This document shows, piece after piece, positions 33,301-36,300 of a stretch of 47,553 bases of DNA (within the stretch, counting starts at the first letter, position 1; every line of letters begins with the position of its first letter). The position numbers were made by a program. The DNA is taken from assembly GCA_044342325.1 (NCBI GenBank), contig JBIIPZ010000026.1:1-47553 (forward strand). Direction: 5' to 3'. The DNA is from Terrimicrobiaceae bacterium. GTDB lineage: Bacteria > Verrucomicrobiota > Verrucomicrobiia > Chthoniobacterales > Terrimicrobiaceae.

Positions 33301-36300
33301 GAGCCGCAAGAAGAGGGGGTGATCAGAACGCCTTCCGGAGATGACTTGGGAGAATGCCGAGTTGTTCGCGGTATTTTGCGACAGTCCGGCGCGCCACGCC
33401 GAGACCGCGGTCCGACAGGAGTTTGACGATATCCTGGTCGCTGTAGGGATTGCGGTTGTTCTCCTCCCGCACGATCTGGGCTATCGCTTGCCGGACGCTC
33501 TCGTTGCTCACGCCCTCCCCGTCGCTGTTCGTGTAGCCATGCGTGAAGAAATACTTCATCTCGAAAATCCCCTGCGGGGTGGAAATGAACTTTCCAGCGG
33601 CGGCTCGGCTGACTGTGGTTTCATGAACCCCGACGGCGTCTGCGACCTGACTCATGGTCATGGGCTTTAAGTGCGAGGGGCCGCGCTCCAGGAATTCCCG
33701 CTGACGCAGGGCGATCTCACGGCCGATATTCAAAATCGTCTGCTGCCGTTGCTGGATGCTTTTAATGAAAAAATTCCCGCCCCGTATTTTGTCGCGCAGG
33801 TATTCCCGGACTTCTTTTGATGAGCCCGCGAGCATATCCTTGTAGGAATCGGAAATCCTCAGACGGGGTATTTCATCGCTGTTCAGACTCACCGTGTAAT
33901 CCTCGCCGTCGTATTCCACGAGCACCTCGGGTGTAACGACCTGGTTGGTGTCCGCCGCATAGGCTCGGCCAGGCATCGGATCCAGACGCGCTATCAACTC
34001 GGCTGCGTGCTGGATTTCTTTAGGATCGAGGTCTAGCGCCTTCGCAATCTCATTCAGTTTTTTTCGGCCCAATTCATCGAGGTAGTGGCGGACGATCCGG
34101 GTTTCCGTGGAATACTGTCGTCCCTGGCTTTTGAGCTGAAGCAAGAGGCACTCGGCGAGGTTCCGTGCCGCGATGCCCGGGGGATCGAATTCCTGCACCT
34201 TTTCCAGCACTCGTTCGACTTCATCCTGCAGGCAATCCACCGCTGTAGCGATTTCTTCCACTGTAGAACGCAGGTATCCAGCATCATCTAGGTTGCCGAT
34301 GATTTCCACGGCGACAATGGCATCCTCTCTCGGCCAGGAGGCCGTTTGGAGTTGCTCCAGAAGATGCTCGGGTAATGTCGGCGGGCGCACCTGGGAATCC
34401 AGGAAATGTTGACGCTTCTCGAGGGCTTCACGCGACCAGGTTTCTCCAGACGAGCGCTGCGTGTAGTATTCATTCCACTGCTCTTCCATCGGACTGGCCT
34501 GCTCCTGTTTGGACTCGGGTGATCTCTCGGGGACGAGTTCCTCCAGCGCGGGATTCGCTCTCAGCTCGGTGTCCACTAGTTGCCTGAGCTCTGCCAGCGG
34601 GGCTTGGAGGACATGCAGGCTCTGCTGCATCTGCGGCGACAGCGATTGCTGGAGCGCCATCTTCGCGACTTGTTGCATGCCTGCCATACCACGAAAATTT
34701 AGGCACAGTTGCTGCTTCAGCAAGCATATTCCGCGCCAATCCAATTGTTTTATTCGAAACGATTGTCATCTATTCATCCAAGCCACTTGTCGGACTATAT
34801 TTACTCGGAAAATTTCTCAAGCCCGTCCTCGAGTGTGCCGATGTTTGATGTATGGAGAAAATCTCCACCCAGTGAGGCTGAGCACTGATTTAAAGCAGCC
34901 CGACGGCGAAACGGACTTCGCACCATAGAAAGACAAAGGATATGTCAGTAGTCATCAACACCAACTCTGCAGCCACATCGGCGGCCTACAACCTCAGCAA
35001 CACCAATGTAAACCTCCAACGCAGCCTCAACAGGCTTTCCAGCGGTTCACGCATCAATTCATCCTTCGACGATGCAGGCGGCCTCGCCGTGTCCATGAAG
35101 ATGAGTGCATCGATCCGCCGGACGGATGCCACATTGGCCAACGTCAACAACTCGCTCTCGTTCCTGCAAACCCAGGACGGAGTGCTCAAGACGGCGGATA
35201 AAATCCTCAATCGCATGTCGGAGCTCGCTACGCTGGCTCAAGATGTGACGAAATCGACCAGCGATCTCTCACTCTATAATACAGAGTTGAGCCAGTTGAA
35301 GGGTCAGCTAGACCTCATGGTTGGCGAGGAATTCAACGGCATCAGCCTGTTCGCGTCGGGAGCCTCCACGGGCCTTGATGTGGACAGCACGCTCACTGTC
35401 GTTACCTCCCATGATGGAGATCAGACCGTTGGCATCACCCAAGTGGACCTAGAATTCATCAGCACCTCCGTTGGAACAGCCGGCGGGGCGGGAATGGATA
35501 TCTCTTCCACCACGGGAGCACAGGCCGCTGTAGATACGATTCAGGATGCGATCCAGGACCTTGCCACCATCCGCGCCAACAACGGCGCCGAGCAGTCCCG
35601 CCTGACCTTTGCTGCCGACATGCTCGCAGTGAACAAAACCAACCTCGAGGCCGCCAACAGCCGGATTCTTGATGTGGATGTGGCCGACGAAAGCACGAAG
35701 CTCGCTCGCTTCAGCATCCTGCAGCAGGCTGGCACGGCGATGCTCGCCCAAGCGAACCAGTCCACCCAATCGATCCTGCGATTGATCAGCTAACAAACGC
35801 TCAGGGTTGCTCCCGAATAAAAGAGGCTCTTCCGAAAGGGAGAGCCTTTTTTGTTTTCTTAAAAAAGCTCGCCTTGAAGTGGCGGTGCAGCTTCTGCGGC
35901 CTCTGCCTCGATCTCGCTGACGAGGGATTTGAACTCGCAGTCCTTGAGTGCGGCAATGAGTTCTGGATGGCGCGGCGATATTTCGAGGGATTCCCAAGCG
36001 ACTGGCATTGGGAGGTCGTCATCGAGGCGCACCATTTCACGGTTTGCGATGATGACTTCGCGGTTTGCGATGATTTTTTCGCGCAAGCGGGGATTCTCAA
36101 TGATCGCGGGGTTTTCGAGAAGGGATTGAACCGTGCCATGTGCGGTCACCAGCTGAACGGCCGTTTTGCCCCCGATTCCAGGAACGCCGGGAATGTTGTC
36201 GGAGCTGTCACCTGTAAGAGCCAGCACATCGGCGATGTTTGCTGCTGGGACACCCCATTTTTCGCGAACCTCTGCGGAGCCAAGTAGAGCGAAGCCGCCT

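Follow-up and report, generated by a model that had tools for sequence, protein, structure and literature searches.

A pseudoknot and GGA-hairpin leader of flagellin genes in Verrucomicrobiia and its probable control by CsrA and FliW

Described flagellin operators and the leader in the window

CsrA prefers GGA sites in hairpin loops (PMC7652899 and PMC4894983, in the sections drawn on here), and for two-site binding the optimum spacing lies above 18 nt within a range of 10–63 nt (PMC7652899). The closest described systems are two flagellin leaders. The flaA 5' UTR of Campylobacter jejuni (Dugar 2016, PMC4894983, main text) resembles the leader reported here in being a sigma-28-type leader with two ANGGA motifs, of which one occupies a hairpin loop and the other, some 21 nt away, the ribosome-binding region, in having a hairpin kept by compensatory changes, and in the presence of fliW and csrA. 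It differs in that it forms two plain stem-loops and that the main text of the article does not use the word "pseudoknot", whereas the leader reported here has an H-type pseudoknot directly adjoining its first hairpin, leaves the second site free of structure, and may form pairs between hairpin loop and linker. The hag leader of Bacillus subtilis (PMC7652899) likewise has two CsrA sites, one of them over the initiation region, and FliW as antagonist; the sections of that article drawn on here mention no pseudoknot.

The window, i.e., the whole stretch of 47,553 nucleotides that was analysed (contig C44 of genome G000), contains a flagellin gene preceded by such a leader (Table 1). The leader has the features of the hag and flaA type, with ANGGA in a hairpin loop, a second ANGGA 25 nt away, and csrA and fliW in the same genome. 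The sigma-28-like promoter was called by comparison with the sigma-28 consensus, and transcription would start near 34851-52. P2 and P3 are separated by a linker consisting of the CG of the putative P4 plus 3 nt, and an A-rich tail of 20 nt joins P3 to the start codon, ending in AAGGAT-ATG. The encoded flagellin is 80–83% identical to three paralogues on contigs C9 and C20, and this copy is probably monocistronic, judged by the putative terminator downstream. The single-sequence fold of the leader was unremarkable (z −0.50) with a program that cannot form pseudoknots. Among 24 RNA runs listed, two matched half the words or more. Contigs from four runs covered the flagellin gene together with the 3' portion of the leader and left 34702-34854 bare; their loose ends continued into the leaders of relatives. 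Because such contigs carry no information on strand, start, or level, they were given no weight as evidence.

Table 1 Features of the flagellin locus in the window (contig C44)
Feature	Position	Strand	Details
Sigma-28-like promoter	34817..34844	+	−35 TCAAG 34817-21; 16-nt spacer after TCAA; −10 GCCGATGT 34837-44
P0, small 5' hairpin	34854..34866	+	−5.1 kcal/mol; 5' arm overlapped by ATGGA 34852-56
P1 of H-type pseudoknot	34870..34887	+	34870-74 with 34883-87; L1 = 34875 (1 nt); L2 = 34881-82 (2 nt)
P2 of H-type pseudoknot	34876..34900	+	34876-80 with 34896-900; A-rich 8-nt L3 = 34888-95
Putative P4	34901..34913	+	Linker CG 34901-02 with P3-loop CG 34912-13; second small pseudoknot
P3, 5-bp hairpin, loop ACGGAC	34906..34921	+	Candidate CsrA site 1; −5.6 kcal/mol
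AAGGA, candidate CsrA site 2	34936..34940	+	1 nt before start codon; 25 nt from P3 GGA
Flagellin gene, 283 aa	34942..35793	+	ORF; PF00669 87.8 bits
Intrinsic-terminator-like hairpin and U tract	35824..35852	+	−31.4 kcal/mol for 67 nt past stop

Covariation of the stems and distribution of the leader

Leaders were chosen solely through the protein encoded, by PF00669 or by a flagellin query, and hence free of any motif pattern, from 41 genomes of the genus, 301 of the order, single families, 401 of the phylum, 331 of a second order, and three named genomes, to which 79 genome and 79 metagenome loci were added. The leader set was drawn from part of the flagellin matches listed and comprised 689 distinct sequences, 673 of them with at least 95 nt. 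A structure-only parser was applied that called a pseudoknot at a score of at least 22 directly before a GGA hairpin. The hairpin was found in 538 of the 673 leaders and the pseudoknot in 433 of these 538, compared to 109 of 1076 dinucleotide shuffles. Distinct leaders passing this score, after removal of the sigma-54 class, other classes, duplicates, and short proteins, yielded a set of 387. Across leaders, stem letters were free to vary while pairing was retained; P1 and P2 together have about 10–12 base pairs, a number that would rise with stacking of P4 and P3. A makes up 59% of L3 in the own order of G000, and Opitutaceae-type leaders have a C/U-rich L3. Upstream of P1, a hairpin of −4 kcal/mol or lower was present within 32 nt in 335 of the 387 leaders (raw count). 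The survey's finding had placed sigma-28-like boxes before the leader, and such a box was recovered 25–34 nt before P1 in 115 of the 387 leaders versus 16 of 387 coding controls, with FliA above cut-off in G000; the strict pattern used for this count misses the window copy, whose −35 reads TCAA.

For the covariation analysis, 69 nt around the GGA were cut from 504 distinct non-sigma-54 leaders without use of the pseudoknot for selection, 13 leaders from other classes were left out, and the remaining 491 were aligned by sequence alone. The null was tree-aware, with the tree's substitutions replayed at random columns in 12 replicates (floor E ≤ 0.083). Eleven column pairs exceeded every null value, and all of them were predicted stem pairs, so that the two interleaved stems of the pseudoknot each covary (four pairs in P1, three in P2), alongside four pairs in P3 and none in P0. 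The P3 signal is partly circular because the leaders were anchored on the GGA hairpin, and the support for P1 and P2 is free of this. Five pairs exceeded the null among 160 own-order leaders (one in P2) and six among 138 Opitutaceae-type leaders (three in P2). The pseudoknot stem, for which a single doubly changing pair had previously been counted, is hence backed by three P2 pairs in protein-selected leaders.

Two further alignments gave the same picture. Alignment A3 was built from 100 diverse leaders picked on pseudoknot score, of which L272 was dropped as a doubtful parse; its covariation was 0.396 versus 0.186 in shuffles (0 of 500 as high). Alignment A4, with 141 distinct model-aligned rows including a few chance matches, reached 0.447 versus 0.198 (0 of 500), and slid versions of both stayed at or below 0.096. 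In A4, P1, which is absent from covariance model R1, was paired in 81% of cells at its three inner pairs and in 57% at its two outer pairs. At 13 stem column pairs, G-U/U-G combinations outnumbered A-C/C-A combinations (368 versus 171), which fits an RNA on the flagellin strand. The existence of the P1/P2 H-type pseudoknot is hardly in doubt; the fold of a pseudoknot followed by a GGA hairpin stands as originally described.

The leader core occurs seven times in G000 (on C44, on C20, and five times on C9), one copy more than the six reported earlier, and all seven copies precede a flagellin, as had been noted for the six. The same seven were recovered by a covariance model at E ≤ 0.001, which additionally gave, at E 0.25, a weak eighth match on C13 that precedes a flagellin-like gene, and two more at E > 1. 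Paralogue leaders are near-identical within the genus. B. subtilis has one flagellin, whereas the leader here is shared by seven or more flagellin paralogues.

The motif had been assigned to one genus, which proved too narrow: the same core sequence is also present in two other families, f4 and f8, of this order, which we take from the genus name to be Chthoniobacterales. Leaders of other Verrucomicrobiia had been said to keep the hairpin without this pseudoknot sequence, and the fold was found there with different letters in ten families of a second order. In total, the pseudoknot leader spans 13 families in two orders (f1, f4, and f8 in the own order; f17, f19, f23, f26, f98, f99, f101, f102, f104, and f111 in the second), the named carriers being mostly Opitutaceae. 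Within the family of G000, 100 of 113 non-sigma-54 leaders passed the pseudoknot score, as did leaders in 30 of 33 sampled genomes of the genus. Matches of model R1 lay before flagellin or flagellin-like ORFs in 30 of 31 cases (151 genomes) and in 23 of 24 (5 genomes), the context having been read downstream for ten and matched to flagellin coordinates for the others. One match, in G1121 (E 0.024), was not upstream of a flagellin, and a further one was located at G623:C1:1700593 (E 0.097). The model, for which 38 candidates were scored per genome, is insensitive and misses the fold present in genome G440 of f17.

The pseudoknot was close to the shuffle rate in leaders of other classes of the phylum (2 of 15) and absent from the five leaders of family f6. 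Leaders of sigma-54-type flagellins keep the GGA hairpin, but only 2 of 20 have the pseudoknot, again near the shuffle rate; the pseudoknot is therefore unnecessary for CsrA-type control. In f8, it was the GGA hairpin that was absent from 59 of 119 leaders. The leader structure is real and wider than one genus.

Predicted CsrA–FliW control and the role of the pseudoknot

In G000, csrA (C24:604-759) adjoins fliW (C24:807-1163), matching the earlier placement of both genes on C24. A second ANGGA was found at the start region of 365 of the 387 leaders, compared to 22 of 387 coding windows. Its variable base is A in 340 of the 365, that of the loop site C in 358 of 387, and C occurs in only 1 of 20 loops of the sigma-54 class. 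The GGA-to-GGA spacing was 18–29 nt in 105 of 130 leaders of one set and 18–23 nt in 97 of 106 of another. The hairpin had been described as lying just before the ribosome-binding site; in the window, the second GGA (34938-40) sits 1 nt before the ATG and not at canonical Shine-Dalgarno spacing. This arrangement recurs in 31 of 78 family leaders, and in Opitutaceae-type leaders AAGGA mostly lies 5–11 nt before the start. A 16S 3' end for comparison with the anti-Shine-Dalgarno was sought and not found. In 34 of the 78 family leaders, the base two positions before the GGA is G instead of A, departing from ANGGA.

The distribution of csrA points in the same direction. In one draw of 301 order genomes, the 14 of 39 family genomes with csrA were those with flagellin, and csrA was present in both flagellated f4 genomes and all ten flagellated f8 genomes, compared to one of five in f6, whose leader differs. 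Besides G000, all 26 flagellated genomes of f1, f4, and f8 in this order sample carry csrA (fliW was sought in G000 only). Among 194 leaders without the standard arrangement, 20 candidates had the pseudoknot before a GGA-less hairpin; ten of these were homologous by eye, and all ten carry ANGGA just upstream of P1, compared to 12 of 226 ordinary Opitutales-type leaders used as control. A CsrA-type site is hence kept somewhere, and pseudoknot and P3 are retained also in leaders where P3 has ceased to provide it. Given two ANGGA sites and a csrA gene that tracks flagellin within the family, the CsrA–FliW switch remains the probable reader, as the survey had suggested, and by analogy with hag and flaA the leader probably serves as an operator at which CsrA is predicted to bind and repress.

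We propose that the leader is a structured 5' element with a double task on the mRNAs of non-sigma-54 flagellins in Verrucomicrobiia. A CsrA dimer would bridge the ANGGA of the P3 loop and that of the start region and thereby block ribosome loading, and FliW, freed on flagellin export, would remove CsrA, as in the Bacillus and Campylobacter systems. P1/P2, stacked on P4/P3, would give a stiff coaxial rod close to the 5' end that may obstruct the 5'-end scanning of RNase E, so that repressed, ribosome-free flagellin mRNA would survive until release by FliW. The survey had assigned the pseudoknot itself no role. Only the fold is conserved and not the letters; the pseudoknot therefore looks structural, working by shape, and the free letters argue against a metabolite aptamer. 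In Escherichia coli, H-type pseudoknots of 8–15 coaxial pairs hinder RNase E scanning in a graded manner, an 11-pair pseudoknot being a "modest" obstacle (PMC9943677, sections drawn on here). This effect, together with the presence of RNase E/G in G000 and with RNase J and FlbT not being found over cut-off in this 86% complete genome, favours the shield. A block to exonucleases lost weight with the same RNase J result. A nearby promoter box was seen for 136 of the 387 copies, so that many lack one, which was counted for the shield. Against it, the obstacle described for 11 pairs is modest and comes from E. coli, and P0 might by itself be enough to protect the mRNA end. On the negative side for the explanation as a whole stand the sigma-54-type leaders with a GGA hairpin and mostly no pseudoknot, the G in place of A in 34 family leaders, the f8 leaders lacking the hairpin, and the f6 leaders lacking the pseudoknot. 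Shielding from RNase E is, tentatively, the most likely of the roles considered for the pseudoknot, and the explanation as a whole, in which operator and shield are combined and CsrA binding, repression, and stabilisation would all occur, is evenly balanced between being right and wrong.

The pseudoknot could instead enhance translation as an S1 or 30S standby platform near the hairpin and an often poor Shine-Dalgarno, with CsrA still repressing, a role that we consider unlikely. It has a precedent in the 5' pseudoknot that tisB needs for S1 and 30S to bind and for its standby translation (PMC7708055, in part), and it is compatible with the sequence-free conservation of the fold, with the non-canonical GGA spacing and A-rich tail of the 31 family leaders above, and with a pseudoknot that marks the multi-copy flagellin class and not the sigma-54 class. 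Unlike in tisB, however, the start region of the window leader is unstructured, and the Opitutaceae-type leaders keep the pseudoknot in spite of their more distant AAGGA.

Two other readings depend on the putative stem P4, in which the CG that follows P2 could pair with its complement, the CG within the P3 loop. The linker base after the C-run and the loop base before the G-run are G:C in 352, T:A in 15, A:A in 8, and otherwise combined in 12 of the 387 leaders. In 14 of 23 leaders without CG, three or more nucleotides pair with the loop of the same leader, compared to 0–1% when linkers and loops were crossed, and by eye the pairing is kept in 9 of 11 GGA-less leaders. P4 stayed below significance in the column test of the 491 leaders (E about 5), with too few independent pairs for significance; on a free tree, five changes were counted, and a single origin of T:A was not rejected (p-AU 0.056). 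The second pair is unpaired in 40 of 99 cells in A3 and 38 of 141 in A4, partly owing to register errors, and P4 is missing in f99, f104, and Pelagicoccus-type leaders. Leader L029, considered as a compensatory case, was rejected because it is rearranged and forms a longer P3 instead. A second small pseudoknot of P4 and P3 is therefore suggestive and phylogenetically not significant, and we lean towards its existence. If formed, P4 would leave the loop ANGGA of P3 partly hidden, which is awkward for a plain operator.

A class-wide tandem double pseudoknot, in which the CsrA loop is base-paired and its accessibility gated by RNA tertiary folding atop the FliW switch, with paralogues tuned by the strength of P2 and P4, seems rather unlikely. 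We regard as improbable the related possibility that the tandem acts as a gate, P4 hiding the CsrA loop in a manner that responds to temperature, Mg2+, a ligand, or a second protein and so sets a CsrA threshold for each paralogue. The joint changes of linker and loop, the own-loop pairing of leaders without CG, the preference of the loop site for C over the A of second sites, and the pairing in GGA-less leaders all speak for such a gate; on the other side, the changes may amount to very few phylogenetic events, P4 has just 2–4 pairs and is absent from the groups named above, almost no nucleotide is invariant, unlike in an aptamer, and persistence of P4 without GGA points to a structural role.

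Use of the pseudoknot as an operator for another protein (a flagellar regulator, chaperone, or export-coupling factor), in the manner of the phage gene 32 pseudoknot, would agree with the confinement of the element to flagellins and with Opitutaceae-type copies that fit the scaffold of the CPK-1 class, whose founding member is an autoregulatory operator; it is nevertheless quite improbable, as no candidate protein was found, FlbT was not found in G000, and loop sequences are not conserved between orders. Finally, a palindromic DNA operator or recent duplication or gene conversion without RNA structure, suggested by P1 alone being an inverted repeat with an 8-nt spacer and by the near-identity of genus paralogues, is largely refuted by three interleaved stems that covary over two orders against a tree-aware null, by the wobble bias, and by the position of the element downstream of the promoter boxes.

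Comparison with catalogued RNAs and known pseudoknots

Small pseudoknot riboswitches (preQ1-I, SAM-II/V, guanidine-III) have conserved unpaired ligand-binding nucleotides. The flagellin leaders show no such signature: only the GGA was invariant among 99 diverse leaders, with two G above 90%, and the letters of L1 and L3 differ between orders. The absence of an Rfam family, already noted in the survey, was confirmed with Rfam 15, which found tmRNA and tRNA only on the window, a best match of E 0.3 (18.8 bits versus a gathering threshold of 63) on 221 nt around the leader, and no match on the leaders of ten loci. No description of the leader motif was found in the literature outside subscription journals, as judged by search listings and the opening lines of abstracts; the main text of PMC5737381, whose 224 motifs are listed in its supplement (beyond the scope here), holds no flagellin or Verrucomicrobia motif.

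In shape, the leader resembles the CPK-1 H-type pseudoknots, whose founding member is the autoregulatory pseudoknot of phage T2 gene 32 mRNA and which lie ahead of a start codon and have short stacked stems and an L1 of 1–2 nt (PMC3835772, sections drawn on here). A single nucleotide makes up L1 in the window leader, as it does in 126 of 130 leaders of the own order, with a parser that allowed 1–2 nt only. Opitutaceae-type copies are the more CPK-1-like, with a P2 of 6–7 bp in 98 of 113 and no inter-stem base in 69 of 113, whereas the window type mostly has a P2 of 5 bp (101 of 130) and two inter-stem bases (98 of 130); the window leader itself, with 5 bp and 2 nt, falls outside the 6–7 bp S2 without inter-stem loop that defines the class. 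CPK-1 is a shape class and not a homologous family, and its gene and reader differ from those of the flagellin leader. The E. coli tisB pseudoknot (PMC7708055) and the RNase E-obstacle pseudoknots (PMC9943677) are likewise sequence-tolerant, near the 5' end, and shape-acting, which is a likeness and not homology; in the sections of these articles drawn on here, neither is coupled to a CsrA site.

Judged from sequence, the leader appears to be an uncatalogued RNA element joined to a known kind of control by CsrA and FliW. It adds a strongly covarying cis RNA, tied to a known switch, to a little-studied bacterial class, on an mRNA that is among the most costly of the cell. With about 55 nt, and with natural compensatory and GGA-less variants as ready controls, it is directly testable in carriers from cultured-type records, i.e., Geminisphaera colitermitum L299 and Oleiharenicola sp. 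L364. The CsrA operators of flagellins known so far are plain hairpins; a pseudoknot welded to a CsrA site, and possibly pairing into it, would set mRNA stability or the threshold of repression in a new way.

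Gene neighbourhood of the flagellin in the window

Names of the protein genes around the flagellin gene were assigned by eye, and on these names no flagellar neighbour was found within positions 28000-42000. The features recorded are listed in the table.

Features near the flagellin gene and elsewhere in the window (protein genes named by eye)
Feature	Position	Strand	Location
tRNA	4263-4347	+	elsewhere in the window
tmRNA	11663-12018	-	elsewhere in the window
Sigma-54-like gene	33323-34744	-	divergent from the flagellin gene
5'-3' exonuclease-like gene	35859-36764	-	convergent with the flagellin gene
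Two PilT-like genes	37157-39618	-	near the flagellin gene

Divergent reading frames, frame losses and GGA hairpins outside flagellin leaders

The full motif was found upstream of two divergent ORFs (leaders L554, G008:C5:3996, and L558, G022:C31:2039), which lie within flagellin arrays and have starts judged by eye to be flagellin-like. A further divergent, flagellin-like ORF of the genome under study (G000:C13, from 19264; 26% identity) has a sigma-28-like promoter upstream; its leader keeps the ACGGA hairpin, and the pseudoknot region is degenerate. The covariance model matches this leader (G000:C13:19199-19247) with an E-value of 0.25. In two leader-bearing flagellin genes (L530 and L556, G008:C5), the frame is lost about 40-50 codons into the gene; these are either pseudogenes or assembly errors.

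At G1121:C29:34531-34577 (L537), a hairpin with an ACGGA loop identical to P3 of the motif was matched by the model (E-value 0.024) with no flagellin downstream and could be another CsrA target or a chance match. Between flagellins at G000:C9:4600-5600, three non-coding repeats carry AAGGA and ACGGA hairpin-like sites, and the model gives no match on these repeats. As for the probable regulator, csrA is present in 32 of the 39 genomes of family f7 in the order sample that have no flagellin match; CsrA presumably has a non-flagellar role in this family.

Lineage range and other types of flagellin leader

Two leaders of family f31 (G782, L234) have a pseudoknot-like fold, with a longer L1 in one, together with a GGA hairpin and, close to the start, one more such hairpin. 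With them the motif may reach into another lineage. Flagellin arrays and leaders in records titled Akkermansia (L287, L292, L296, L305) group with the types of f23 and Opitutaceae, and these records are probably mislabelled assemblies.

A separate flagellin class is represented by L009 (G000:C12), with orthologues that include L045, L057, L066, and L069. Its leaders combine sigma-54-like boxes with a GGA hairpin in whose loop the N is mostly U or A, and they lack the pseudoknot. In family f6 (L080, L083, L085-L087, L118), a different conserved leader consists of one stem, a GNRA-like linker, and an AAGGA hairpin; csrA was found in only one of the five flagellated genomes. Family f52 (L207, L208, L210, L216), which belongs to another taxonomic class, has a conserved leader in which a nested hairpin is followed by an AAGGA hairpin, and which looks like a further undescribed motif.
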